NCBI GenBank assembly: GCA_046052125.1
Contig: JBJOMY010000001.1
Span: 288,001-352,000, forward strand
Length of the DNA: 64,000 bases
Direction of reading: 5' to 3'
Source: Cyanobacteriota bacterium
GTDB lineage: Bacteria; Cyanobacteriota; Cyanobacteriia; PCC-6307; Cyanobiaceae
Position numbers and translations under genes: made by a program. The notes below the pieces were generated by a model, which saw nothing but the letters and a program-made list of their open reading frames with translations, was not told where the DNA came from and did no database searches. This document shows, in pieces, positions 6,878-23,390 of the stretch; within the stretch, counting starts at the first letter, position 1, and each line of letters begins with the position of its first letter.

Positions 6878-8878
6878 ATGAAGAAACTGACTGCCGGCGA
6901 TCCCGAGACCATGAGCCCAGACCTGGTCGCGGCGAATCTCGAGCGGCTCAAGGCACAGTTTCCAGAACTGGTCACGGAAGGGCCGAATGGTTCTGCCGTG
7001 AATGTGGATGTCCTGAAGGCGCTGGTCGGCGATAAAACCGTGACGGATGCTGACGAGAAATACGGCCTCAACTGGCATGGAAAACGTCAGGCCCGGCAAC
7101 TGGCGCTCATGCCCTCGACTGGCACATTGCGTCCCTGCCCGGAAGAGAGCGTGGACTGGGACACCACGCAGAACCTGATGATCGAAGGGGACAACCTGGA
7201 GGTGCTCAAGCTCCTGCAGAAGAGCTACGCGGGAAAAGTTAAACTCATATATATTGACCCTCCATACAATACCGGCAATGATTTCGTCTACCCGGACGAC
7301 TATGTTGACTCAATAAAAAACTATCACGAGCTAACAGGCCAAGTCGAGGGCGGAGCAAGAGTATCAACAAATACAGAGGCGTCTGGCCGTTTCCATACTG
7401 AATGGCTAAACATGATGCTACCCAGACTTCAGCTTGCAAGCCAATTGCTGAGCAAAGACGAAGGGGTGCTCATGGTATCTATTGGCGACCACGAAGTTCA
7501 TCACACAAGACTGCTTATTGACACGGTACTTGGCATGGAGAACTTCATTGGAAGCTTTGTATGGCAAGGAGGCAGAAAGAATGATGCCAGGCTAATTTCC
7601 AATAGCCATGACTATATCCTGGTTTACGCAAAAAATCTTGCCGCTATCCGGAGCGCAGACTCTCGCTGGCGAGAGAAGAAAGATGGACTCGATCCCGTCT
7701 ATGAAAAAGTCGCGGAACTGCGCTTGCTACACGGGGAAGACTTTGCAGCCATGCACAGCGAGATGCTTCGATGGTTTCGGGAGCTTCCCGAAGGGCATCC
7801 TTCAAAGCCACACGCTCATTTTAATTATATTGATAGCAGAGGAGTCTTCTTTCCTGATAATCTTCGCAGCCCCAACCCAAGGCCAAATCTTGTTTTCGAC
7901 TGGAAAGGATACCAGCCACACCCGAATGGGTGGGCATACAGCAGAGAGAAGATGGAACGCCTCGATGCAGAAGACAGGCTTGTTTATCCAGCATCTAAAA
8001 CGCAAAGGGTTAAAATTAAGTCCTATCTTCATGAACACGAAGAGTGGGCTCCAGGGTCCGTCTTTTACAAGGACAGAAGAGCTGCTTCAAAAGCCCTGAC
8101 CAGCTTAATGGGGGAAGAAGTATTTAGCTATCCCAAGGACATTGATGTTCTTGCAAGGTTCATCTCCGCAATCACAAAAGATGGCGATATAGTGATGGAC
8201 TTCTTCGCGGGTTCGGGCGCGACGGGGCATGCTGTTATGAAGGCCGAATCGCAACGACCTCTTAAGAGACGCTATATACTTGTCCAGCTCCCTGAGCAGC
8301 TAGAAATCAGTAATAGCGAGCAAGAGAAGGCAGCAAGATTTTGCATTGATATCGGCAAGCCGTGCACCATTGCAGAGCTCACAAAAGAGGGGCTTCGCCG
8401 TGCAGGCCAGTCTGTTCAAGGTTACAACCCGCTGTTGGCAGGCGATCTTGGCTTTCGGGTCTTCAAACTCGATTCCAGCAACATCCGCGCATGGGAGCCA
8501 GATCCTAACAATCTTGACCAGACAGTCCTTGATTACACGAACCATATCAAGGATGGTCGCACCGAGCAGGACATTCTCTACGAACTGCTTCTCAAGCTGG
8601 GACTTGAGTTGTGCGTGCCGATCGAACAAAAAGACATTGCTGGCAAAACCGTGCACAGCATTGGCGGCGGTGTCCTGATGGCCTGCCTTGCGCCTGAGAT
8701 TGCAAGTGAAAATGTGGAGCATCTTGCACAAGGACTGGTGGCCTGGCATCAGGTCCTTGCTCCAGCAGGCGACACCACCTGTGTGTTTCGCGACAGCGCT
8801 TTTGCTGATGATGTGGCCAAAATCAATCTCGCAGCCATTTTGAATCAGCACGGTCTAATGAACGTGCGGAGCTTGTGA
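6878..8878 (+). CDS. mod: Type III restriction-modification methyltransferase subunit (beta-class N6-adenine MTase)
   Basis: IEGDNLEVLKLL, YIDPPYN (motif IV), DFFAGSGATGHA (motif I) and GFRVFKLDSSN, in beta-class motif order. Confidence 0.93.
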   Translation: MKKLTAGDPETMSPDLVAANLERLKAQFPELVTEGPNGSAVNVDVLKALVGDKTVTDADEKYGLNWHGKRQARQLALMPSTGTLRPCPEESVDWDTTQNLMIEGDNLEVLKLLQKSYAGKVKLIYIDPPYNTGNDFVYPDDYVDSIKNYHELTGQVEGGARVSTNTEASGRFHTEWLNMMLPRLQLASQLLSKDEGVLMVSIGDHEVHHTRLLIDTVLGMENFIGSFVWQGGRKNDARLISNSHDYILVYAKNLAAIRSADSRWREKKDGLDPVYEKVAELRLLHGEDFAAMHSEMLRWFRELPEGHPSKPHAHFNYIDSRGVFFPDNLRSPNPRPNLVFDWKGYQPHPNGWAYSREKMERLDAEDRLVYPASKTQRVKIKSYLHEHEEWAPGSVFYKDRRAASKALTSLMGEEVFSYPKDIDVLARFISAITKDGDIVMDFFAGSGATGHAVMKAESQRPLKRRYILVQLPEQLEISNSEQEKAARFCIDIGKPCTIAELTKEGLRRAGQSVQGYNPLLAGDLGFRVFKLDSSNIRAWEPDPNNLDQTVLDYTNHIKDGRTEQDILYELLLKLGLELCVPIEQKDIAGKTVHSIGGGVLMACLAPEIASENVEHLAQGLVAWHQVLAPAGDTTCVFRDSAFADDVAKINLAAILNQHGLMNVRSL

Positions 8879-8885
8879 CATCGCG

Positions 8886-11858
8886 ATGATGAAGCTCCAT
8901 TTCGAACCTGATCTCGACTATCAGCTCACAGCGATCGAATCTGTCTGTGATCTATTTCGTGGTCAGGAGACCTGCCGTACCGAATTTACCGTCACCAAGA
9001 GTGCACTTGGTGGGGCGTTCATACCCGGTCTTGAGAGTGATCTAGGCGTCGGCAACCGCCTGACGCTGCTTGAAGACGAGCTGCTCAAAAACCTCAGCGG
9101 CATCCAACTCCGTCATGGCCTACCACCTTCTGTTGAGCTCACCTCACGCGACTTCACTGTGGAGATGGAGACTGGGACCGGTAAAACCTACGTCTACTTG
9201 CGCACCATCTTCGAGCTGAATAAGCGCTATGGCTTCAACAAGTTTGTCATCGTGGTCCCTTCAGTGGCGATCAAAGAGGGGGTCTATAAATCACTGCAGA
9301 TCACTGAGCAGCACTTCAAGGGCCTCTACGCAGGAGTTCATTGCGACTACTTTCTCTACGACTCAAACAAGCTTGGCCAGGTTCGCAATTTCGCAACCAG
9401 CGCCAGCATCCAAATCATGGTGGTCACCGTTGGGGCTATCAATAAGAGGGACGTCAATAACCTCTACAAGGAGAGCGAAAAGACAGGTGGCGAAAAGCCG
9501 ATTGACTTGATCAAGGCAACAAGACCCATTGTGATTGTTGATGAGCCTCAGAGCGTCGATGGTGGCCTGCAAGGGAGTGGGAAAAGAGCGCTTGAGGCAA
9601 TGAGTCCACTTTGCACATTGCGCTACTCCGCCACCCATGTGGATCGCCATCACATGGTCTATCGCCTAGATGCGGTCGATGCCTATGAGAAGCGACTTGT
9701 CAAGCAAATCGAAGTGGCCTCAGCCACCGTAGAAGATGCTCACAACAAGCCCTATGTGCGGCTCTTGTCGGTGAAGAACCAGCGAGGAATGATTAGCGCT
9801 CAGGTTGAGCTTGATTTGCAGACAGCCACGGGTGGTGTTCGACGTCAGACAGTCACCGTGCAAGATGGTGACGATCTCGCGCAGACCACTGGTCGCACTA
9901 TCTATGCCAACTGCCGAATCGGAGAGATACGAGTCGCCAAAGGCGGTGAATATTTAGAACTACGCGTTCCCGGCGCGGACCAATATCTGCAGATCGGACA
10001 AGCCTGGGGCGATGTTGACTTGCTAGCTGTTCAACGTGAGATGATTCGCCGCACGATCCGTGAGCATCTCGACAAGGAAAAGCGGCTGCGTCCACAGGGC
10101 ATCAAAGTTCTCTCTCTCTTCTTCATTGATGAGGTGGCGAAATACCGCTCCTATGACAGTGAGGGTAATGCCGTTAAAGGCGACTACGCGCGCATCTTTG
10201 AAGAGGAGTATCGGCGTGCAGCGGCACTGCCTGACTACCACACACTGTTTCAAGAAGTTGATCTTTCGCATGCAGCCGAAGATGTCCACAACGGCTACTT
10301 CTCGATTGACAGGGCTGGGGGCTGGACAAATACCGCCGAAAACAATCAGACGAACCGTGACAACGCAGAACGCGCCTACAACCTGATCATGAAGGAGAAG
10401 GAGAAGTTGTTGTCATTGCAAACTCCTTTGAAATTCATTTTCTCGCACTCAGCCTTGAAAGAAGGCTGGGACAGTCCCAATGTGTTCCAAATCTGTACCC
10501 TGCGCGATATTTCAACTGAACGTGAGCGTCGACAAACCATTGGCCGTGGTCTCCGCCTGTGTGTAAACCAGCAAGGCGAGCGCCGCCGCGGTTTTGACGT
10601 CAATACCTTGACCGTCATTGCGATGGAGAGCTACGAGCAATTTGCTGAACGCTTGCAGAAGGAAATTGAAGAAGACACTGGCATTCGCTTTGGTGTCGTG
10701 GAATCTCATGAGTTCGCAAGCATCGCGGTCGTCAGTTCTGACGGCAGCATTGCTCCGCTGGGGGTTGAACAGTCCAGAGTTTTGTGGGATCACTTCAAGG
10801 CAGAAGGCCATCTGGATAACCGCGGCAAAGTTCAGGATTCGCTCAGGGATGCCCTGAAGAGCGGCTCACTCACCGTGCCTCAGCCATTCGAGGCGCAGCG
10901 TGACCAAATCACGGCCGTTCTCAAAAAGCTGGCAGGACGTCTTGAGATCAAGAATGCCGATGAGCGCCGTCAGGTGCGTACCCGACAGGCGGTGCTGCAC
11001 AGCCCTGAGTTCAAGGCGTTATGGGATCGCATCAAGCACAAGACCACCTACAGGGTGGAATTTGACAACGAACGGCTGATTGAGACCTGTATCCGTGCTG
11101 TGCAGGCAGCGCCGCCGATTCCGAAAACCCGCCTGCAATGGCGCAAGGCTGACCTCGCCATCGGACAGGCGGGTGTCGAGGCTATAGAGCGTGAGGGAGC
11201 AGCCACAGTGGTGCTTGACGAAAGAGACATCCAGCTTCCCGATCTACTCACAGATCTCCAGGACCGCACACAGCTCACCAGACGCAGCCTGCAGCGCATT
11301 CTGAGCGGCAGCCTGCGGCTCGATGATTTCAAGAGCAATCCGCAAGCCTTCATTGTGCTCACCGCCGAGGCGATCAATCGGTGCAAACGCCTTGTTGTAG
11401 TAGATGGGATTAAATATCAGCGCCTTGGCGATGAACACTATTACGCTCAGGAACTCTTCGAGAAAGAGGAGTTGACAGGCTATCTAAGAAATCTTCTGGA
11501 TACCACCAAGGCTGTCTATGAGCAGGTGGTTTACGACTCGGAGATTGAACGAAGCTTTGGAGACCAGCTCGAGAAGAACAGTGCGGTCAAGGTCTATGCG
11601 AAATTGCCAGACTGGTTCACTGTGCCGACACCGTTAGGCGGCTACAACCCAGATTGGGCCGTCCTCATTGAGAAGGACGGAACTGAGAGGCTCTATTTCG
11701 TGGTGGAAACAAAAAGCAGTCTTTTTACAGATGACCTGCGAGACAAGGAGCGAGCAAAGATTGAATGCGGCAAGGCTCACTTCAATGCTCTGAGACAGGG
11801 CGAAACATCCGCCACTTACTTGGTCGCGAGAACTCTTGAAGAAGTCCTTGGGGATTAG
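8886..11858 (+). CDS. res: Type III restriction endonuclease subunit
   Basis: EMETGTGKTYVY, IVDEPQ, LRYSAT, LKEGWDSPNVFQIC, QTIGRGLR, and C-terminal PD-(D/E)xK motif YNPDW...VVETK. Confidence 0.93.
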   Translation: MMKLHFEPDLDYQLTAIESVCDLFRGQETCRTEFTVTKSALGGAFIPGLESDLGVGNRLTLLEDELLKNLSGIQLRHGLPPSVELTSRDFTVEMETGTGKTYVYLRTIFELNKRYGFNKFVIVVPSVAIKEGVYKSLQITEQHFKGLYAGVHCDYFLYDSNKLGQVRNFATSASIQIMVVTVGAINKRDVNNLYKESEKTGGEKPIDLIKATRPIVIVDEPQSVDGGLQGSGKRALEAMSPLCTLRYSATHVDRHHMVYRLDAVDAYEKRLVKQIEVASATVEDAHNKPYVRLLSVKNQRGMISAQVELDLQTATGGVRRQTVTVQDGDDLAQTTGRTIYANCRIGEIRVAKGGEYLELRVPGADQYLQIGQAWGDVDLLAVQREMIRRTIREHLDKEKRLRPQGIKVLSLFFIDEVAKYRSYDSEGNAVKGDYARIFEEEYRRAAALPDYHTLFQEVDLSHAAEDVHNGYFSIDRAGGWTNTAENNQTNRDNAERAYNLIMKEKEKLLSLQTPLKFIFSHSALKEGWDSPNVFQICTLRDISTERERRQTIGRGLRLCVNQQGERRRGFDVNTLTVIAMESYEQFAERLQKEIEEDTGIRFGVVESHEFASIAVVSSDGSIAPLGVEQSRVLWDHFKAEGHLDNRGKVQDSLRDALKSGSLTVPQPFEAQRDQITAVLKKLAGRLEIKNADERRQVRTRQAVLHSPEFKALWDRIKHKTTYRVEFDNERLIETCIRAVQAAPPIPKTRLQWRKADLAIGQAGVEAIEREGAATVVLDERDIQLPDLLTDLQDRTQLTRRSLQRILSGSLRLDDFKSNPQAFIVLTAEAINRCKRLVVVDGIKYQRLGDEHYYAQELFEKEELTGYLRNLLDTTKAVYEQVVYDSEIERSFGDQLEKNSAVKVYAKLPDWFTVPTPLGGYNPDWAVLIEKDGTERLYFVVETKSSLFTDDLRDKERAKIECGKAHFNALRQGETSATYLVARTLEEVLGD

Positions 11859-12065: not shown

Positions 12066-12356
12066 TCAGCGCTCCTGCAGAACCACCCCAGACCTGAGCA
12101 CGGAGACACGATCCACCGCTAGGTCCTCCGCCGCTGGGTGACTGCGCCGGAGTTCCTGCAGCAGGAGCGACTCAAGCTGCTCTCCTTCCAGCCAGGCGGG
12201 GACCCATTGGGTTCGGCTCATGGACAGCCAAGCCGGCCACCGCTCGGTCACGGTGTCACCGGCGGTGGTTCCCGCCACCCAGACCGTGGCGGTCTCGCCC
12301 TGCTGCAGAACGCGGTAGTGCACCCTCAGCTTGTTGTGGGGAAGGGCTGAGTTCAT
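12066..12356 (-). CDS. Hypothetical protein
   Basis: ATG at 12356 (MNSALPHNKLRVHY) overlaps the stop of the Nif11-like gene (ATGA). Confidence 0.55.
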   Translation of the reverse strand: MNSALPHNKLRVHYRVLQQGETATVWVAGTTAGDTVTERWPAWLSMSRTQWVPAWLEGEQLESLLLQELRRSHPAAEDLAVDRVSVLRSGVVLQER

Positions 12357-12550
12357 CCCTGGGCCGCCTGCTCCTGTTCCCGCTGCTCCTCCTGCCACGC
12401 ACGCTGCAGATCGATCCGCGTGATCCGGTAACCGAGGCGCCGTGCCGCAAGGATCAGCTCCTTACGGGAGCGGCAGTGCTTGAGCGCCCGTTGGAGGGCG
12501 CTATCGGCCTCCACGTCGTCCACAAAACGCTCCAGCTCGGACCAGCTCAT
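12353..12550 (-). CDS. Nif11-like leader-domain protein
   Basis: MSWSELERFVDDVEADSALQRAL...LILAARRLGYRITRIDL matches the Nif11 pattern. ATG at 12550. Confidence 0.8.
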   Translation of the reverse strand: MSWSELERFVDDVEADSALQRALKHCRSRKELILAARRLGYRITRIDLQRAWQEEQREQEQAAQG

Positions 12551-12714
12551 CGGAGGGAAAGCCCTGGATCTCTCACCATGCCAAGGGTGTCTGAGCTGCG
12601 CCAGGTTCCGTGGATCACACTCCTCCAGACCCCGCGTCAGCACTGAGGAAACCGGCCGGAACACCGGCCGGCGGGAGGTTCAAAAGATCGAGCCGTGGTC
12701 CCTTTGTTCCCGGC

Positions 12715-13158
12715 TCAGTCCGCAGAGCTTGAACCATCCCAATTGGAGCTGTGCTTGATCACAGCGGTGCAGAAATTCAACAACTCCCGGGGGGTCATGT
12801 CGTGCTTGGCGTCATTGGTGCGCCAAGCGCAGATCACGAAGTCCGGTTCCGGTTGGTTGGTGCGGTGATCAATGGTGGGGAGCATCGCGTAGCGCTTCTT
12901 GTGCTCGCCTTTGCCCTCGGCGGCTTCACGATTGTCGTAAGTGCCGATCAGCTCCCACTCGAGCCACTCGCCGGTCCAGTGGTCGAACCCCTGGGAAGCC
13001 AGCACCGCTTCATGGATCGCCAGCCGGTACTGCTGCACATTGCCAACGCCGCCACGTTTCTGATCTCGCTTGGACAACGTCACCGCCTTGCGCTGCACCC
13101 AGCCGGGGTAGGTGGCTTTGGAGACGTCCGGCATCCAGTCAGGGGCGGGGGTGTTCAT
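12715..13158 (-). CDS. Putative HNH-like nuclease
   Basis: LPTIDH...FVICAWRTNDAKHDM resembles the DH...N..K beta-beta-alpha-Me motif. Confidence 0.55.
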   Translation of the reverse strand: MNTPAPDWMPDVSKATYPGWVQRKAVTLSKRDQKRGGVGNVQQYRLAIHEAVLASQGFDHWTGEWLEWELIGTYDNREAAEGKGEHKKRYAMLPTIDHRTNQPEPDFVICAWRTNDAKHDMTPRELLNFCTAVIKHSSNWDGSSSAD

Positions 13159-13200
13159 CGAGATGGGGTGCTCCGGAAGAAAGATCGTTTCACTGCGTGC

Positions 13201-13914
13201 TCAAGCCAGCCCCAACCCCTCAATCCCCTGCCAACCCAGATAGAGCCCGAGAGCAACGCCCACCAGACCTACCAGCAGATCGCCTTTGGCGAACAACCAC
13301 TGCTTCCCGCGCTCCAGGATCGCCAGCACGCGCTCAGGGCCGGCCAACACCAGAGCCAGCAGTGGGATTAGCAACAGGCTTGCGCTCACCAGGCTGAACA
13401 CGCCTGTGGCCAGGAGTTCGCTGGCAGTGCCAAGGCCTGACGCCAGCAACGTGCCGGCCGTCTTGGTGAACAAAAACAGCGCGTCGGGTCGCACCACCTC
13501 CAGGGCCGCACTGATCGCGAGGAGCAGCGGAAGCGGCATGGCGCAGAACTGATCGAGCTTGCGGGTCCAACCCGGTGGCTCTGCGCTGCCATCCCCTTTG
13601 TTGAGAAGTTCCTTCAGGCCCAGCCCCAACAGCACGCCGGCGGCCACCAGATCCAGGCCGGTGCGGTGGCTGCTGCCCTTGTCCATGCTCAGAAACAGCC
13701 CATGGCCCACGGTGGTGAGCAGCGTCACCGCAACAGCGGCGGTGATCAGCCAACCGGCCACAAACCAACCCCCGCGGTGCAGAGGCTTCGGCCCGAGCAG
13801 GATCAGCAGCAGCAGGCCGATGTGCAGCGGCGAGAGCCCAATCGCCAACCCAAAGGCGGCCAGCTCACCAAGCAGGGAACCAAGGCCCTGGCTTGCGGCC
13901 ACGGGATCAGCCAT
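13201..13914 (-). CDS. GAP/Sap-family (LysE-like) membrane protein
   Basis: FGLAIGLSPLHIGLLLLIL...GGWFVAGW, about 6 hydrophobic segments, PPGW motif. Confidence 0.7.
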   Translation of the reverse strand: MADPVAASQGLGSLLGELAAFGLAIGLSPLHIGLLLLILLGPKPLHRGGWFVAGWLITAAVAVTLLTTVGHGLFLSMDKGSSHRTGLDLVAAGVLLGLGLKELLNKGDGSAEPPGWTRKLDQFCAMPLPLLLAISAALEVVRPDALFLFTKTAGTLLASGLGTASELLATGVFSLVSASLLLIPLLALVLAGPERVLAILERGKQWLFAKGDLLVGLVGVALGLYLGWQGIEGLGLA

Positions 13915-14009
13915 GGGAAGGATCAGTGATGCAGTGGATCTTCCCCCCATGGACCGGAATCGGGAAGGTGTAGCGCTTGCGCATCAGCCCGATTCGAAGC
14001 TGCTGGACA

Positions 14010-14510
14010 ATGCCATCCATGGCACAAACCTCTCCCCGTCAACCCCAGCTCTTGCGCCTGCTCCACGGCGCGATGGTGGTGTTGGTGCCTTTGGCCTGGC
14101 TGAGTGGTGCAGTGGTGTTCTCCAATCACGACGGGCGCTGGCTGCGCCTACCCGTGCAGGTGCCTGGCAACTGGATCGACATCCACGGAACGATCGGCGT
14201 GCTGCTCTGGCCGCTGGCCGCCCTGTTTTTGATCTATGCCCTGAGCGTGGGGCGCTTCCGCTTGCGCCAGGGCGCCAATGCCGCCGCCCTGATCGCTCTG
14301 GTGCTGGCGGTGGGCAGCGGCAAGTTCATGCAGGAAGACTGGCTGCGCAACGGCGATCTGAATCACGTCGTGTATCACCTGCACGTGCTGGCCTGGCTGT
14401 TGATCGCAGGAGCCGTGGCCTGGCACATCGCGGGTGTGTTCTCCCGTGGTGGCGTGCCGTTGGCGAGCTCGATGTTTCGGCTCAACACGGTCAAAGGCTC
14501 GTCGAAGTGA
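14010..14510 (+). CDS. Cytochrome b/b561-like di-heme membrane protein
   Basis: LRLLHG, IDIHG, YHLH and WHIA histidines on four hydrophobic helices. Confidence 0.75.
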   Translation: MPSMAQTSPRQPQLLRLLHGAMVVLVPLAWLSGAVVFSNHDGRWLRLPVQVPGNWIDIHGTIGVLLWPLAALFLIYALSVGRFRLRQGANAAALIALVLAVGSGKFMQEDWLRNGDLNHVVYHLHVLAWLLIAGAVAWHIAGVFSRGGVPLASSMFRLNTVKGSSK

Positions 14511-14521
14511 GCTGATAGGCG

Positions 14522-14908
14522 ATGCGCAACCTCACTTGGGACGAGTTTGAGCTGGCGGTGAACCGCATCGCGGAGCACTGCCGTGATGGCCAATTCAGCG
14601 GGGTGTACGGCATTCCCCGAGGCGGCCTGGTGCTCGCAGTGACGCTCAGCCATCGGCTGAATCTGCCCCTCCTGCCCAGCGCCCAACCCGGTTGCCTGCT
14701 GGTGGACGACGTGTACGAAACCGGGCTCACCCTCGAGCGCTATCGACAGCTCGAGCACTGCACGGCGATGGTGTGGGTGAGCAAGGCCGAGCCGCAGTGG
14801 TGGCAGGCGGTGGAGGTGGTGCAATCCAGCGAATGGATCGTGTTTCCGTGGGAAAGCGCCGCTGCCGCCGCCGCGGATGAACAGGCCTATCGAGCCTCCC
14901 GGCCATGA
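14522..14908 (+). CDS. Short type I phosphoribosyltransferase (XGPRT-like)
   Basis: GVYGIPRGGL, PRPP-binding LLVDDVYETGLTL, C-terminal WIVFPWE. Confidence 0.85.
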   Translation: MRNLTWDEFELAVNRIAEHCRDGQFSGVYGIPRGGLVLAVTLSHRLNLPLLPSAQPGCLLVDDVYETGLTLERYRQLEHCTAMVWVSKAEPQWWQAVEVVQSSEWIVFPWESAAAAAADEQAYRASRP

Positions 14909-15384
14909 CGCGTCCCACCCTTTATCTGGCCTCCCCCTACGGCTTCTCTCCCCACTGGCGTGAGCGGCTGCTTCCCGATTTCGTTCAAGCCCTCGAGGCT
15001 CTCGGGCTGGAGGTGTGGGAGCCGTTCACACGCAACGGCCAGGTGGATCTGGCAGAACCAGGCTGGGCCTGGCGGGTGGCCCAGGCCGACCTGCAGGACA
15101 TGCGTGATGCCGATGCGCTGCTCGCCATCGTGAACGGAACGCCTCCTGATGAGGGCGTGATGCTCGAACTGGGCGCGGCGATCGCGCTCGGCAAACCCGT
15201 GTTTCTCTACCGCGACGACTTCCGCCGTTGCAGTGATTCTGAGGACTATCCCCTCAACTTGATGGTGTTCAGCGGCCTGCCGCAACAGGGCTGGCAGGAG
15301 TGGCTTTACGGCTCGATCCACGAGCTCAGTGATCCCGGCAAGGCCCTGGTGCGCTGGATCCAGGGCACCGCAGAGCAGCAGTGA
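14905..15384 (+). CDS. Nucleoside 2-deoxyribosyltransferase / nucleotide N-glycosidase family protein
   Basis: LYLASP, ADLQDMRDAD, PDEGVMLELGAAIALGKPV (catalytic Glu), NLM. ATGA overlap with the PRTase. Confidence 0.88.
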   Translation: MTRPTLYLASPYGFSPHWRERLLPDFVQALEALGLEVWEPFTRNGQVDLAEPGWAWRVAQADLQDMRDADALLAIVNGTPPDEGVMLELGAAIALGKPVFLYRDDFRRCSDSEDYPLNLMVFSGLPQQGWQEWLYGSIHELSDPGKALVRWIQGTAEQQ

Positions 15385-15393
15385 AGGCCTGCC

Positions 15394-16083
15394 ATGGCTG
15401 AAGCGGCTGTGCGCGTAAAAATCTGCGGCGTGCGCCGCCCGGAGGATGCCCGCCTAGCGGCCCACCTTGGCGCCGATGCGGTTGGCGTGCTGGTGGGCCA
15501 GAGCCATCCCAGCGGCGACTTCATCGAACCGTCCACCGCATCCGCAATCCTGCGGGAGCTGCCAAAGCAGGTGACCGGAATGCTGGTGAGCCACCTCGAG
15601 GATCCAGCCGCCCTGTTGGAGCTGATCGATCTACTCCACCCAGGGGCCCTGCAACTGCACAGCGCCATTCATCCAGAGGCCGTTCGACAGATCCGCCAGG
15701 CCAGACCGGATCTGCTGCTCACCAAGGCCGTGCACGGCAACGCCGGCAATCCGCTGGAGACGATCCGGCAGTACGGCCAGCTGGTGGATGGCTTCGTGGC
15801 CGACAGCTGCAATCCCGCCACGGGCCAGGTAGGCGGCACAGGCCTCACCCACGATTGGGCCATCAGCGCCGATCTCGTGCGGCAAGCCCCCGTGCCGCTC
15901 TGGCTAGCGGGGGGCCTGACACCACACAACGTGGCGGTGGCAATCGCGCAGGTGCAGCCCTGGGGCGTGGATGTGAACAGCGGCGTGAAGGGCCCCGATG
16001 GCTTCAAGTGCCCGCAGCTGCTGCAGGCATTCATCCAAGCCGCCAAGGGGAACGCCAGTTCAAGCCCCCGCTCGCCAGGATGA
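15394..16083 (+). CDS. trpF: Phosphoribosylanthranilate isomerase-family protein (TrpF-like, possibly a paralog)
   Basis: VKICG, LQLH, DS...[27 protein letters not shown]. Confidence 0.8.
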
Positions 16084-17786
16084 GCCCAGGCCACCCTGAA
16101 GCCGGATCTGCCGTGTCGACCACCACCTTCGCGGAGTTCGCGCAACGGGCCGACTATTCGCTGCTGGAGACGCTGCAGCCGGATCCCAAGGCCACCAGCG
16201 ATGGCCAGGACCATCAGCCGCGCCAGGTGTTCTCGGGGCACTACGTGCCGGTCAAGCCCACGCCGATTCCGGCGCCGGAATACGTGGCCCACAGCCGCAT
16301 CTTGTTTGCCGAGCTGGGGCTGAGCGACTCACTCGTACACGACGACGCGTTCCAGCGGCTGTTCTCCGGCGACAGCAGCGTGGCCACCGGGCCGATGCGG
16401 CCGTTTGGCTGGGCCACCGGTTACGCCCTCTCGATCTACGGCACCGAATACATCCAGCAGTGCCCCTTCGGCACGGGCAACGGCTATGGCGACGGCCGGG
16501 CCATCTCGATCTTTGAAGGACTGTTTGAAGGCCAACGCTGGGAACTGCAGCTCAAAGGAGGTGGCCCCACCCCCTACTGCCGCGGCGCCGATGGCCGCGC
16601 TGTGCTGCGCTCCAGCGTGCGCGAGTTTCTGGCCCAGGAGTTCATGCACGCCCTGGGGGTTCCCAGCTCCCGCTCGCTCACGCTCTACATGTCGCGCGCC
16701 GAAGCGGTGCGGCGGCCCTGGTATTCGCCCAACTCCCGCTCGTTCGATCCCGATGTGATGGTCGACAACCCAGCGGCGATCACCACACGGGTGGCGCCCT
16801 CGTTCCTGCGGGTGGGGCAGCTGGAGTTGTTTGCACGCCGGGCCCGCAGCAATGGCCATGCCGCCGCCTTGCGCGAGCTGCAGATGATCACGGCCCATCT
16901 GATCGAGCGCAACTACCGCTCGCAGATCAATGCGTCTCTGCCCTTCCACGAGCAGGTGCTGGAGCTGGCCCGCTTGTTCCGCGAGCGGCTCACCACTCTG
17001 GTGGCGAACTGGATGCGCGTGGGCTACTGCCAGGGCAACTTCAACAGCGACAACTGCGCCGCCGGTGGCTACACCCTCGATTACGGCCCCTTCGGCTTCT
17101 GCGAGCTGTTCGACCCACGCTTCCAGCCCTGGACCGGTGGCGGGGAGCACTTCTGCTTCTTCAACCAACCGGCGGCCGCTGAGGTGAATTACGGGATGTT
17201 CGTGAAATCGCTGCGGCCCCTGCTGGAAGGCGACAGCGAGGCCATGGCCGAACTGGATGCGATCCAAAGCGGCTTTGCCGAAGCCATGGCACAGGCGATG
17301 GAGACGATGTGGGCCAGCAAGCTCGGACTACCCCGCTACGACGGCGAGCTGATGCAGGAGTTTCTGCAGCTGCTGGTGAATTCCAGGGCTGATTACACGA
17401 TCTTCTTCCGCCGCCTGTCAGAGATCCCCGAGCAGCTGGAACCCCTCAAGGAGAGCTTCTATCTGCCCAGCTCAGAGGAGCTCGATGCGCAGTGGAGCAG
17501 CTGGCTGGTGCGCTGGAGGGAGGCGATCAAGTCGAACGGCAACCTTGAGGAGACATCCGCTGCGATGAAGCGGGTGAACCCCGCAATCACCTGGCGCGAA
17601 TGGCTGATCGCTCCCGCCTACGAACGAGCGGCCCAGGGCGACACCCAGCTGATCCAGGAACTGCAGGCGCTGTTCAGCGATCCCTACAGCGACTGCCCCC
17701 CAGAGCTGGCCGCCAAATACGACCGGCTCAAACCCCGCGAGTTCTTCAACGCAGGAGGCGTGTCGCACTACAGCTGTTCGTCGTGA
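16080..17786 (+). CDS. selO: SelO/YdiU-family protein adenylyltransferase
   Basis: [48 protein letters not shown]-terminal SCSS. ATG 16080 overlaps the trpF stop; alternative GTG at 16113. Confidence 0.92.
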
Positions 17787-17790
17787 AGCA

Positions 17791-18612
17791 TCAACCGAGC
17801 ATGCGCATTCGCACAAGTGAATCCCACAAACGCGTGGGCATGAGCCGCTGCACGAGCACCGCCTCAGATTCGCTGCCGCAGCGGTAGCGGGGATTGGGAT
17901 CGCTGGCCTGTAGAGCAGCTGCGATGGTGCGAGCCACCACCTCAGGCTCTGAGCCCCTGCGGAATCCATCGGCCCAGCCGGCGGCAACCCGCCGCATCAT
18001 CGAACCCCAAACAGGGTCGAGCCCTTCGCGCTGCATGGCATCAGCCGTAACGCCCTCAAAGCCGGTGCGGATCAAGCCGGGCTCCACCAGCACCACGTGA
18101 ACGCCGAACTGGTGCAGCTCCAGGCGCAGGGCATCACTGATCGCCTCCACGGCGTGCTTGCTCGCGCCATACCAACCGGCCCCGGGTGTCACGAAGCGGC
18201 CGGCGATGGAGGAGAGGTTCACGATGCAGCCGCGGCGCCGTTCGCGCATCGCCGGCAGCAGCAGCTGGGTGAGGCCCACCAGGCCGAACACATTCACTTC
18301 AAACATGGCTCGGGCCCGATCGAGAGCCATTGTTTCCACCGGGCCCACATCGCCATAGCCGGCGTTGTTCACCAACGCATCGAGCGCGCCGACGCGTTCG
18401 CTAATGGCATGAGCAAGCGCATCGCGTGAGCTCGGGTCGACCAAATCCAGGGGGAAGATCTCAGCGCCGCGGCTGCGCAGCGGCTCCATCGCTTCAACCC
18501 GGCGCGCTGCAGCCAACACGCGCCAGCCCTGATCGATCAGGCGATGGGCCGTGGCCAAGCCAATGCCGCTGGAGGCACCGGTGATCAACACACTGCGGCG
18601 GGCGTCAGCCAT
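17791..18612 (-). CDS. Short-chain dehydrogenase/reductase
   Basis: ITGASSGIG, NNAG, YGASK. Start at ATG 18612 (MADARRS). Confidence 0.9.
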   Translation of the reverse strand: MADARRSVLITGASSGIGLATAHRLIDQGWRVLAAARRVEAMEPLRSRGAEIFPLDLVDPSSRDALAHAISERVGALDALVNNAGYGDVGPVETMALDRARAMFEVNVFGLVGLTQLLLPAMRERRRGCIVNLSSIAGRFVTPGAGWYGASKHAVEAISDALRLELHQFGVHVVLVEPGLIRTGFEGVTADAMQREGLDPVWGSMMRRVAAGWADGFRRGSEPEVVARTIAAALQASDPNPRYRCGSESEAVLVQRLMPTRLWDSLVRMRMLG

Positions 18613-18696
18613 CGGATTCCAAGCGACGGTTGCACTGTGGCGGATGAAGACTGCAGCTAGGGTCAAAAACGAGGCAACCCCTGCGCGACAGAGCCT

Positions 18697-19509
18697 GTGA
18701 ACAGCAATCAGGGCTGTCTTCTGCTGGTGGGCCTGGTGGTGGGGTTGCCGATCCTGATGGCGCTCTGGCCGCTTGTGGTTGTGGTGGGCGTGTTGGGCCT
18801 GGTGGTGTGGGTCGTGCAGATCTACAGCCAACAAGTCACCGCGCTGGAATTGAAGAACTGGAATTCCAGGCACGGGCAGGCCATCTGCCGCTGGAAGAAC
18901 CAGCACGGTGTGATTCAGGAGCTAGTGGGCAGCCAACAGATCCTGGAACTGAAGGTGTCGCTGCTCGATCAAGACAGCGGCCGCGCCATGTTGGTCGACG
19001 AGCAGATCAAGCTGGCACCTGCGCCTGGAGCAGGGTTATGTTCGGCCCGAGACATCACAACACGCCTCGAGCGAACCGGCATTGAACTGATCGGCGAGCT
19101 TTCGGTGGAAGCCAAAGCGATGCGAACTGCCCTGCAGTGTGTTGAGGAAATTCTCTGGAGCAGCCATGCCCTCGAGGATTTGCAGCAAATGGGGCGAGAC
19201 GCAGAGCACACGATCACGATCGCGCCGGGAAATGAACTGCTGGAGCCAGCCATTCCACAGCTGCTGAAAGCCAAAGCGAATGTGGAACGTGAAATCGAGC
19301 TGATTCAGAACGCCGTTCGCGAGAGCAGCGCGATGTTGAACGACCTGGGGGAGTTTCTTTCCGTGCCTGCGAGCATCAGACCTGTACTCAACTTCGACCC
19401 CACAACGAGGCACCGGCCCGAGCGGCTGCAGGAATTACAAGCCTCGTTCGAGGAGGTGGTGCTACTGAATCAGGTGTATCGCGAGCTATCCGAAAACAAG
19501 CTGATCTGA
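18697..19509 (+). CDS. Hypothetical protein with N-terminal membrane anchor and helical C-terminus
   Basis: 270-aa ORF with a strongly hydrophobic N-terminus. Confidence 0.7.
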   Translation: MNSNQGCLLLVGLVVGLPILMALWPLVVVVGVLGLVVWVVQIYSQQVTALELKNWNSRHGQAICRWKNQHGVIQELVGSQQILELKVSLLDQDSGRAMLVDEQIKLAPAPGAGLCSARDITTRLERTGIELIGELSVEAKAMRTALQCVEEILWSSHALEDLQQMGRDAEHTITIAPGNELLEPAIPQLLKAKANVEREIELIQNAVRESSAMLNDLGEFLSVPASIRPVLNFDPTTRHRPERLQELQASFEEVVLLNQVYRELSENKLI

Positions 19510-22090: not shown

Positions 22091-22249
22091 ATGCCTTCTC
22101 TTCTTTCCACCATCACCGCAGCAGCTCTATTGGCGCCAGCCAATCCACTGATGATCCCCGCCAAAAACGGCAACACCTGCCCTGGCGGCACCAGCTACGC
22201 CGGTGCGGGCTATTGCAAAGTGCGCTATCGAGCGAGTCAATCCCGGTGA
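22091..22249 (+). CDS. Small putatively secreted Cys-containing peptide (52 aa; not in the ORF track)
   Basis: Manual translation MPSLLSTITAAALLAPANPLMIPAKNGNTCPGGTSYAGAGYCKVRYRASQSR. Its stop overlaps the next GTG (GTGA). Confidence 0.55.
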   Translation: MPSLLSTITAAALLAPANPLMIPAKNGNTCPGGTSYAGAGYCKVRYRASQSR

Positions 22250-22895
22250 TCAGCGATCGCTATAGCGGGGCCTTGCGCGGGACAGAGGAGCTCCACCGCG
22301 ACCAGCGCCGCAAGTGCAAAGGTGTGCCTTACATCTCCCACCAGATCAGCATCAGCGCCCTGGTATGCGAAGACAGCGGCACAAAAGATCAGCCATCGCC
22401 GCCTGGCTGCGCATCGCCATTGAGGACGCCTGCCAGAGCTCTGGCTCTATTGCCGAACGCTTCGGAGAAGCCGTGGCCGATATTGTGCGCGAATGCACTG
22501 ACACCAGCGACAACGCACCACCGGGCGAGAAGGAACCGTGGCTACTGCGTAATACACTCAACATCGTCTCACTCGAGCACAAGCCCGAGGCCTTGCTGTT
22601 GGTGAAGGCCGCCGACAAGGCCCACAACGCCGGCGACATGGTGCTCGAGGCGCGGCGCGATCCCGCTTTGTAGAGCAAGTTCAACGCCGGGATTGGGGGA
22701 TCGCCCAGGTATCTGCTGCGGATCTACCAACAACTTCAACACCAGCTGCCTCAGAGCCGTTCGGTGGGACGGCTGGGAGAAGCCGTGAGTGGAATCCTCT
22801 CGATGGGCGGCTTCAAGAAGGGCCTAGTGCCAAAGAGGTTCGCCCCAGCTGTGTGGGCAGCGGGGTACGCAGACCGCATCGGGACGCAGGAGTGA
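22246..22895 (+). pseudogene. HD-domain (SpoT/MESH1-like) hydrolase, disrupted
   Basis: LHRDQRRK..GVPYISH, then a frameshift near 22392 to AIAAWLRIAIED (HD lost), FGEAVADIVRECTD and ADKAHN. In-frame TAG at 22671; the frame continues to TGA 22895. Confidence 0.8.
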
Positions 22896-23390
22896 TTCCC
22901 CTGTCATTAGCTCTGGCAGCCGCTGCCCTAGTGGCCCAAACCCATCCCCGCCACCGTGGTGTCCATCGGCGACGGCGACACCCTGCGCGTGCGCGAAGGC
23001 AACCGCACCCTGAATGTGCGCCTGGCCTGCATCGATGCCCCCGAAACCAGCCAGGCGCCCCATGGCGCCAATGCCCGAACCCAACTTCAGGCCCTGGCCC
23101 CGCTCGGCTCCAGCGTGGAGCTGCGCATCCAAGCCACCGACCGCTACGGCCGCTCCGTCGCCGAACTGAGCCGCAACGGCCGCAACCTCAACCAAGCCCT
23201 GGTGGCCTCGGGCGCCTCCTTTGTGTACTGGCAGTACATCGCCGGCTGCGACCGCCAGACCTACAGCCGCCTCGAATCCCAGGCCCGCCTGCGGGGACTC
23301 GGGGTATGGAGCGTGCCCGGCGGGGTGCGTCGGCCGTGGGATTTCAGGGCAGGGAACCGGCGCCCGAAGACCACCGGTGTTGCTCAGTGA
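22892..23390 (+). pseudogene. Thermonuclease (SNase-family) with its signal peptide separated by a 1-nt frameshift
   Basis: SIGDGDTL, VRLACIDAPE, DRYGR. The upstream frame encodes VIPLSLALAAAALVAQT; removing one C at 22941-22943 fuses them (AQTIPATVVSIGDGDT). Confidence 0.75.

Follow-up and report, generated by a model that had tools for sequence, protein, structure and literature searches.

The proteins considered here have characterised relatives in both nucleobase salvage and tryptophan synthesis. The nucleoside 2'-deoxyribosyltransferase (NDT) of Chroococcidiopsis thermalis (CtNDT) has Glu88 as its nucleophile, with D62 also tested, and catalyses both transfer and hydrolysis via a covalent (deoxy)ribosyl-enzyme intermediate (PMC10913048), while a 2026 preprint groups NDT with a 'hypoxanthine phosphoribosyltransferase' among the nucleobase-salvage functions of Prochlorococcus (10.64898/2026.09.23.753768). 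The phosphoribosylanthranilate (PRA) isomerase TrpF of Chlamydia trachomatis isomerises the product of GTP cyclohydrolase II, bypassing FolE and FolQ, and keeps its PRA isomerase activity (PMC4161248). In actinobacteria, TrpF activity is supplied by PriA, and TrpF homologues found alongside PriA in Streptosporangiaceae rescue E. coli trpF mutants (PMC13055916). We analysed a 64,000-nt stretch of DNA from a freshwater picocyanobacterium (hereafter the window; contig JBJOMY010000001.1, C1:288001-352000 of a 2.64 Mb genome with a completeness of 99.96%), in which a cluster of five genes on the + strand (14010-17786) encodes, in this order, a cytochrome b561-family membrane protein, a small type I phosphoribosyltransferase (PRTase, gene PRT), an NDT, a TrpF-like protein (TrpF2) and a SelO-family protein (Table 1). 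An earlier sequence-only reading had proposed that these genes form a joint pathway; in our analysis the operon is probably an accident of gene loss and the TrpF paralog is truly odd, and nothing pointed to a joint pathway or to redox coupling.

The coordinates of the open reading frames (ORFs) confirmed the same-strand arrangement and the tight junctions that the earlier reading had described, with an 11-nt spacer between the cytochrome b and PRTase genes (14511-14521), an ATGA overlap between PRTase and NDT (14905-14908), a 9-nt spacer between NDT and TrpF2 (15385-15393) and a second ATGA overlap between TrpF2 and SelO (16080-16083, in the context 'caggATGAgcc'). The absence of other trp genes from the window was likewise borne out, with trpC located on contig C5, trpD at C1:36232, trpB on C7, trpA on C4 and a second trpF on C3 (trpE and trpG were not part of this search).

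In the closest relatives that have another gene order, unrelated genes on both strands separate these units. One of them is locus L068, where the genes are 79-93% identical to those of the window and are ordered PRT-NDT-AbrB-glnN(-)-glgP-TrpF2-desaturase(-)-SelO-CBAH(-)-SDR(-)...HD-SNase (SDR, short-chain dehydrogenase; SNase, staphylococcal-nuclease-like). The window displays this order minus AbrB, glnN, glgP, the desaturase and CBAH. The same-genus genome G168 has PRT-NDT-AbrB..glnN-glgP, and in G069 PRT-NDT-AbrB is followed by SelO approximately 4 kb downstream of AbrB. At the NDT/TrpF2 junction, the window tracks the 3' end of the L068 NDT gene up to GTGCGC-TGGATC, and then continues with the L068 sequence located just upstream of TrpF2, 7.1 kb away, with similar short words present at both L068 ends of this breakpoint. 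Since the window switches there to the L068 sequence upstream of TrpF2, the last six codons of NDT and the 9-nt spacer would represent the native TrpF2 leader. Similarly, at the TrpF2/SelO junction the 18 nt up to and including the SelO ATG (CCCCCGCTCGCCAGGATG) are common to the SelO leader of L068, where an opposite-strand desaturase gene separates TrpF2 from SelO, and in the window the TrpF2 frame reads into this native leader and stops at the TGA overlapping the SelO ATG. On these DNA alignments, both junctions flanking TrpF2 look like deletion scars. Upstream of PRT, the homology with relatives stops at the PRT start codon.

All five genes are found in the same order in L164, a metagenome contig of 50.5 kb with 86-96% amino-acid identity, which was the one close relative returned by a metagenome scan with TrpF2, and in DNA contigs of run X3, which bridge all four junctions and come from a near relative; these carriers are approximately 86-97% identical to the window. 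In L164 the NDT/TrpF2 junction is 46 nt shorter, with a GTG start and a 10-nt overlap. The five-gene order was not found in 16 wider relative loci, in L068 or in 80 TrpF2-like loci. The order thus recurs only in near-identical populations, which comes close to the complete lack of conservation that the sequence-only reading had named as speaking against its proposal. That reading had regarded TrpF2 as an inserted paralog; it is indeed the unusual element, but rather than TrpF2 having been inserted into a PRT-NDT-SelO operon, the intervening genes appear to have been lost.

We consider it likely that the cluster was compacted recently, and only in this lineage, through deletion of the separating genes from a variable chromosomal region, and that it does not represent one pathway. 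Several points weigh against this view. A deletion origin is compatible with an operon that is kept for useful co-expression, and the arrangement has been maintained in two or more of the sampled populations. That the change was a deletion here and not an insertion in the relatives rests on three outgroup arrangements (L068, G168 and G069) that are unrooted, and the breakpoint repeats, which were read from four-sequence alignments, are short and imperfect. As to transcription, the RNA-library contig that bridges the NDT/TrpF2 junction (X19, 15197-15444) derives from a relative, with 5 differences in 248 nt, and could be DNA carried into the library. Further X19 contigs were located on the cytochrome b, PRT, TrpF2 and SelO genes, while no contig of X19 or X21, which give partial coverage, bridges the cytochrome b/PRT, PRT/NDT or TrpF2/SelO junctions with at least 31 letters on each side. 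A scan for promoters and terminators in the cluster gave nothing above chance (no promoter-like sites, and 5 terminator-like sites versus 3.6 expected). The five genes are probably co-transcribed.

The record titles of L068 and L080 name metagenome-assembled genomes (MAGs) of Asaia bogorensis and Salipiger bermudensis, but the genes on these contigs are picocyanobacterial, with up to 93% identity to window proteins, and in the tree their TrpF2 sequences belong to the picocyanobacterial clade; both contigs are probably mis-binned. Nine AbrB-like paralogs, with 40-94% identity to the AbrB located beside NDT in L068, were found on C1, C3, C4 and C5 of genome G000.

The only conserved pair in the cluster is PRT-NDT, which reads as a nucleobase/nucleoside salvage unit because its NDT closely matches the characterised Chroococcidiopsis enzyme. 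The NDT protein was matched in 75/201 genomes of the family (53/131 of the high-quality ones), and the PRTase is located directly upstream of NDT in 24 of the 29 best non-self loci (exceptions L057, L060, L061, L064 and L066), which supports the picocyanobacterial pairing that the sequence-only reading had described. The window NDT matches PF05014 over profile positions 1-117 (106.8 bits, cut-off 28.8), and its best solved match is CtNDT, with which it aligns end to end (chains 8RH3, 8QC0 and 8PQP-T, E=1e-65). The positions mutated in CtNDT (D62, E88 and M120) are invariant, with the same numbering, in 23 orthologues. The NDT would exchange or hydrolyse the base of (deoxy)nucleosides via a covalent Glu88-ribosyl intermediate, as shown for CtNDT.

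The PRTase is less conventional. Its match to PF00156 is marginal (27.7 bits versus 26.3) and covers only residues 7-50, and it scores 40.2 bits with the NCBIfam XPRT equivalog, below the cut-off of 138. Its closest sequence matches, and the top fold matches of its predicted model, which has a moderate confidence score (predicted local distance difference test, pLDDT, 72), are 1vdm and E. coli XGPRT, and residues 4-49 and 58-112 align with chain positions 6-52 and 86-146 of these structures. Between the two matched blocks the PRTase has 8 residues, versus 33 in 1vdm and approximately 30 in XGPRT, and so lacks a segment of approximately 25 residues, which we take to be the beta-hairpin/flexible catalytic loop of solved purine PRTases. 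The phosphoribosyl pyrophosphate (PRPP) motif LxVDDVYETGxT aligns with the same motif of 1vdm, and 24 orthologues, from a family with a length of 127-128 residues, all carry GxPRGG, VDDVYETGxT and W..FPWE unchanged. This XGPRT-like mini-PRTase may turn the freed base, putatively a purine, and PRPP into a nucleotide. A point against the salvage reading is that the catalytic competence of the PRTase is not assured, because the flexible-loop hairpin is missing.

The SDR gene following SelO in the window (17791-18906, - strand) recurs near PRT-NDT elsewhere (L154, L155, L159 and L068). It is located directly upstream and on the same strand in G049 and G086 (63-65% identity) and approximately 1.5 kb downstream in G114; L068 also has it nearby (93%). 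This gene may have a closer association with the salvage pair than TrpF2 and SelO have. Locus L155 (G086:C9) carries two NDT copies located 5.4 kb apart (8001-8474 and 13433-13891), with 88% and 84% identity to the window NDT, both near an SDR-like gene.

The outer two genes of the cluster, encoding cytochrome b561 and SelO, are independent neighbours. The cytochrome b (PF01292, Ni_hydr_CYTB, 37.5 bits versus cut-off 30.1) adjoins PRT only in the window and in L164, and up to a distance of 8 kb from PRT-NDT, the 16 wider relative loci and L068 showed neither cytochrome b nor the SfLAP-family gene that flanks the cluster; within this distance, TrpF2 was detected in L068 alone and SelO in L068 and G069 alone. 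SelO gave a full-length match to PF02696 (232.8 bits, cut-off 22.8) and 297 bits with the NCBIfam YdiU subfamily model, below the cut-off of 431, and its residues 51-540 align with Pseudomonas syringae SelO (6EAC), with NSDN and DYG matching NTDN and DFG.

TrpF2 belongs to the PRA isomerase (PRAI) family, as it matches PF00697 over the full model length (profile positions 1-193, 75.8 bits, cut-off 22.7), but it scores below the cut-off with all 13 NCBIfam trpF equivalog models (best 145.3 versus 215). The genome also has the separate housekeeping trpF that the sequence-only reading had proposed to look for; it is located on C3 beside a site-2-protease-like ORF and FolE, and scores 95.2 bits versus 75.6 for the paralog. 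In a tree of 112 sequences, the 26 housekeeping picocyanobacterial sequences are placed on one side of a branch with a Shimodaira-Hasegawa-like approximate likelihood ratio test (SH-aLRT) support of 100, and the window TrpF2 is found in a clade of seven rows (SH-aLRT 97) together with L164, L068, G156/L069, L070 and L080. The paralog lies outside the group formed by housekeeping cyanobacterial TrpF. As canonical TrpF of other phyla are not included in the tree, this result establishes that TrpF2 is distinct from the housekeeping clade, but not that it is monophyletic.

The best solved match of TrpF2 is Thermotoga maritima TrpF (1LBM/1NSJ, E=1.5e-22). Its C11 and D137 align with Cys7 and Asp126 of that enzyme and are invariant in 15 diverse members; in TrpF the cysteine acts as general base and the aspartate as general acid. 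At the position of Arg36, which presumably binds the carboxylate of anthranilate in T. maritima TrpF, TrpF2 has an aspartate (D42), and all 26 housekeeping picocyanobacterial TrpF have S-(P/K)-R. The TrpF2 loop is two residues longer and has a VGQxHxS..F motif, of which VGQxHxS is invariant in the same 15 members. Because the acid/base pair and the phosphate-binding motifs are kept, TrpF2 is most likely an accessory isomerase that would still catalyse the Amadori rearrangement of an N-(5-phosphoribosyl)amine.

Within the family, TrpF2 was detected in 5/201 genomes (G000, G156, G074, G129 and, more distant, G176) and in none of seven same-genus genomes; four genomes with two weak TrpF matches each (G001, G022, G057 and G198) were left out of this typing. 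The other four cluster genes are not near TrpF2 in G074, G129, G156 and G176, where its neighbours differ per genome. G156 and G176 have TrpF2 and NDT at distant positions, and in the genus of the carriers G074 and G129, NDT was found in 0/4 searched genomes. Clustering of 1,725 neighbouring ORFs from 80 loci with TrpF2-type genes showed no universal partner but only lineage-specific groups that did not exceed 8 loci, for example CoaX (Lentisphaerota) and a GGDEF protein (mycobacteria), and a PRT or NDT neighbour was present in 0/79 loci other than L068.

An ORF located upstream of TrpF2 in L068, L070 and L080 ('u176', approximately 51% identity) was considered as a partner and rejected; it has no Pfam match, overlaps an opposite-strand ORF, and is unrelated to the gene upstream of TrpF2 in G156. 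In Crocosphaera and Leptolyngbya, a TrpF2-like gene follows a gene for a protein with prenyltransferase/squalene-hopene-cyclase-like repeats, and in a Myxococcota MAG it adjoins a polyprenyl synthetase gene (Table 1), which may hint at an isoprenoid context in these lineages. In L071 (6831-8672), a verrucomicrobial MAG, the TrpF2-like domain forms residues 397-606 of a 613-aa ORF, of which the first 390 residues matched nothing in Pfam; either the domain is part of a fusion protein or the ORF was called too long.

The distribution of the TrpF2 type points to a role outside tryptophan synthesis. We searched for tryptophan genes in 15 other genomes, comprising 10 examined directly and 5 carriers from a 61-genome sample of the phylum of G203. 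The TrpF2 type is present in six genomes in which indole-3-glycerol-phosphate synthase (IGPS, TrpC) was not detected (G202, G203, G206, G207, G226 and G238), and in G202 and G203, which were also searched for TrpA, TrpA was not found either. In the phylum sample, 50 genomes had a PRAI match and 49 an IGPS match; all three PRAI-positive, IGPS-negative genomes (G203, G226 and G238) carry the TrpF2 type, the sole PRAI genes examined in IGPS-positive genomes were canonical with a short S-x-R loop (11/11), and the second PRAI copies of G259 and G268 were again of the TrpF2 type. Except for two actinobacteria, none of the 15 genomes combines IGPS with a TrpF2-type protein as its only PRAI. It is kept in Verrucomicrobiota/Lentisphaerota and Myxococcota genomes without detected tryptophan pathway genes, and occurs as an extra copy in cyanobacteria, Nitrospirota, Clostridia and actinobacteria. 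Synechococcus sp. MIT S9451 likewise has both a housekeeping and a TrpF2-type gene.

We tentatively propose, with somewhat less than even confidence, that the TrpF2 type, with its VGQxHxS..F loop and no carboxylate-binding arginine, is a widespread uncharacterised family of phosphoribosylamine Amadori isomerases with a physiological substrate other than phosphoribosylanthranilate, and that in the window deletion put one member on the same transcript as a base-salvage pair. This proposal has to be weighed against several observations. The absence of IGPS and TrpA was scored in genomes of unreported completeness, where 'not found' does not equal 'absent', and TrpF typing covered 16 of the 47 PRAI- and IGPS-positive genomes of the phylum sample, with 31 left out. 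Furthermore, 6/80 TrpF2-like loci (38-43% identity) adjoin trpB/trpA, so that the 'non-trp' type has no clear limit. Finally, co-occurrence with another isomerase does not prevent TrpF homologues from complementing trpF mutants (PMC4161248, PMC13055916), and since this holds for homologues co-occurring with PriA, a residual PRA activity of TrpF2 is quite possible.

In an alternative explanation, TrpF2 is a horizontally acquired second phosphoribosylanthranilate isomerase, a redundant tryptophan isozyme without a new function. The catalytic Cys/Asp pair and phosphate-binding motifs are kept, the Pfam PRAI match spans the whole model, the six trpB/trpA-linked loci belong to the wider clade, and both the chlamydial TrpF and the Streptosporangiaceae TrpF co-occurring with PriA complement E. 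coli trpF mutants (PMC4161248; PMC13055916). We regard this explanation as unlikely, as the type persists in six genomes without detected IGPS and was in no case the only PRAI of an IGPS-positive genome outside actinobacteria (0/11 in the phylum sample and none of the 10 direct genomes), and since the aspartate at the Arg36 position, the family-specific VGQxHxS loop invariant in 15 members and the scores below cut-off for every NCBIfam trpF equivalog all set TrpF2 apart.

Less probable still, and in our view very unlikely, is the joint pathway of the sequence-only reading, in which PRTase, NDT and TrpF2 act on one non-canonical base, with the PRTase making an N-phosphoribosyl compound, TrpF2 rearranging it, NDT supplying or removing the base, and cytochrome b and SelO exerting redox control. 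The chemistries of PRTase, NDT and TrpF all concern the ribose C1'-N bond, and the single strand, the tight junctions, the changed substrate loop of TrpF2 and the RNA-library contig spanning the NDT/TrpF2 junction would all fit such a pathway, for which the action of chlamydial TrpF on the RibA product, a pyrimidine N-ribosylamine phosphate, provides a precedent (PMC4161248). However, G074 and G129 have TrpF2 but no detected NDT, the two genes lie far apart in G156 and G176, NDT-PRT is present in 70 other family genomes in which no TrpF2-type copy was seen, and none of the 79 TrpF2-type loci in other phyla (L068 excluded) has a PRT or NDT neighbour. The units are separated by opposite-strand genes in L068, both junctions flanking TrpF2 resemble deletion scars, and cytochrome b is adjacent only in the window and L164. 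The supposed redox input from cytochrome b and SelO found no support. An antiviral role had also been suggested, but the five proteins gave no match to anti-phage defence models (PADLOC).

The weakest explanation, that TrpF2 and GTP cyclohydrolase II bypass FolE/FolQ in pterin/folate synthesis as in C. trachomatis, draws on the ability of TrpF to isomerise the RibA product to dihydroneopterin monophosphate (PMC4161248), on the many TrpF2-type genes in Verrucomicrobiota and Lentisphaerota, which are relatives of the Chlamydiae, and on the survival of the type in genomes without detected tryptophan pathway genes, but is highly improbable here, as FolE (PF01227) is present in the genome of the window and in 3/4 trp-lacking carriers tested, so that no bypass is needed in those genomes, and Verrucomicrobia and Lentisphaera keep folE according to a figure legend of the same source (PMC4161248, Fig. 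5 legend).

The cluster is flanked by a divergent gene for an SfLAP-family membrane protein upstream and the convergent SDR gene downstream, and has a G+C content of 64-65%. Directly upstream, a segment of 52-53% G+C contains a complete type III restriction enzyme (8886-11858, + strand; PADLOC REase_III, 1343 bits), which suggests a flexible island. A small Nif11-domain protein is encoded just upstream of the SfLAP gene (12353-12664, - strand); Nif11-domain proteins serve as leaders for ribosomal natural products in cyanobacteria. Further downstream, an HD-domain gene (22213-23363, + strand) aligns with its L068 homologue as two separate parts (22213-22392 and 22383-22892), which suggests a frameshift or a split gene; it is followed by a staphylococcal-nuclease-like gene, and the genome holds several such HD-SNase pairs. 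A search of 12500-19500 against Rfam gave no credible riboswitch or leader RNA, with a miRNA model (26.9 bits, gathering score 52) as the sole match.

Table 1. Features of the five-gene cluster (window coordinates), and loci and genomes carrying TrpF2-like genes
Feature	Location	Strand	Remarks
Cytochrome b561-family membrane protein, 166 aa	14010-14510	+	ATG 14010; alternative start TTG 13977; PF01292
Mini type I PRTase, XGPRT-like, 128 aa	14522-14908	+	PF00156; fold matches 1vdm, E. coli XGPRT
NDT, nucleoside 2'-deoxyribosyl/ribosyl transferase, close CtNDT homologue	14905-15384	+	PF05014
TrpF2-type (beta-alpha)8 isomerase, phosphoribosylanthranilate isomerase paralog	15394-16083	+	PF00697
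SelO/YdiU-family protein adenylyltransferase, 568 aa	16080-17786	+	PF02696; frame open 15855-17786, ATG at 16080
NDT/TrpF2 junction, read as deletion scar	15373-15396	+	DNA alignment with L068
TrpF2/SelO junction, read as deletion scar	16050-16083	+	DNA alignment with L068
Genes in a possible isoprenoid context of TrpF2-like genes	L090 6439-7932; L098 6667-7971; L099 6761-8020		
Canonical higher-scoring TrpF also present	G204, G205, G208, G209		beside trpC in G204, G209
Actinobacteria with TrpC, carrying a TrpF2-like gene	G201, G210		
TrpF2-like carriers with no IGPS found	G202, G203, G206, G207		

Tight or overlapping junctions are often taken as proof of shared function, and the two junctions discussed here, which appear to have come from deletion, call for caution in operon-based pathway inference in streamlined genomes. 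The NDT, SelO and cytochrome b are ordinary parts, and PRT-NDT represents ordinary salvage, yet its PRTase is an unusually small loop-less form that was apparently never assayed; this PRTase and, above all, the TrpF2 type are worth experiment. If TrpF2 acts outside tryptophan synthesis, it would represent a new reaction or repair step in phosphoribosylamine metabolism, the database label 'phosphoribosylanthranilate isomerase' of its named relatives would have to be corrected, and under the transcript of the salvage pair TrpF2 could gain access to an unusual N-phosphoribosyl base. In the full-text literature, with subscription journals not covered, we found nothing on this TrpF loop type beyond the chlamydial and PriA/TrpF cases.

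Compared with the known systems, the window NDT has the same length as the NDT of C. thermalis PCC 7203 (PDB 8PQP-8PQT, 8QC0 and 8RH3) and shares its D62, E88 and M120, but differs in a lineage-specific C-terminal tail of approximately 6 residues, apparently made by the deletion junction. The PRTase has the RGG loop, the VDDxxxTGxT motif and the C-terminal W..PW in common with E. coli XGPRT (Gpt; 1A95) and the purine PRTase of Pyrococcus horikoshii (1VDM), and unlike both is without the approximately 25 residues between the matched blocks. SelO keeps the active-site DN and DxG over approximately 490 residues aligned with the SelO/YdiU proteins of P. syringae (6EAC) and E. coli (6K20), but is approximately 80 residues longer than the solved bacterial SelO proteins and has QGN in place of the HGV of the 6EAC motif 'HGVMNTDN'. 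The C. trachomatis TrpF (CT327) is a TrpF-family protein kept in a genome with an incomplete trp pathway, and carries out the Amadori rearrangement of a nucleotide-derived N-ribosylamine phosphate (PMC4161248), whereas carriers of the TrpF2 type mostly keep FolE. Finally, TrpF2 shares with T. maritima TrpF the (beta-alpha)8 PRAI fold family, the Cys/Asp pair and the GGxG and LxGGL phosphate-binding motifs, and is set apart from it by the replacement of Arg36 with Asp42, the QxHxS loop and the absence of linkage to trp genes.

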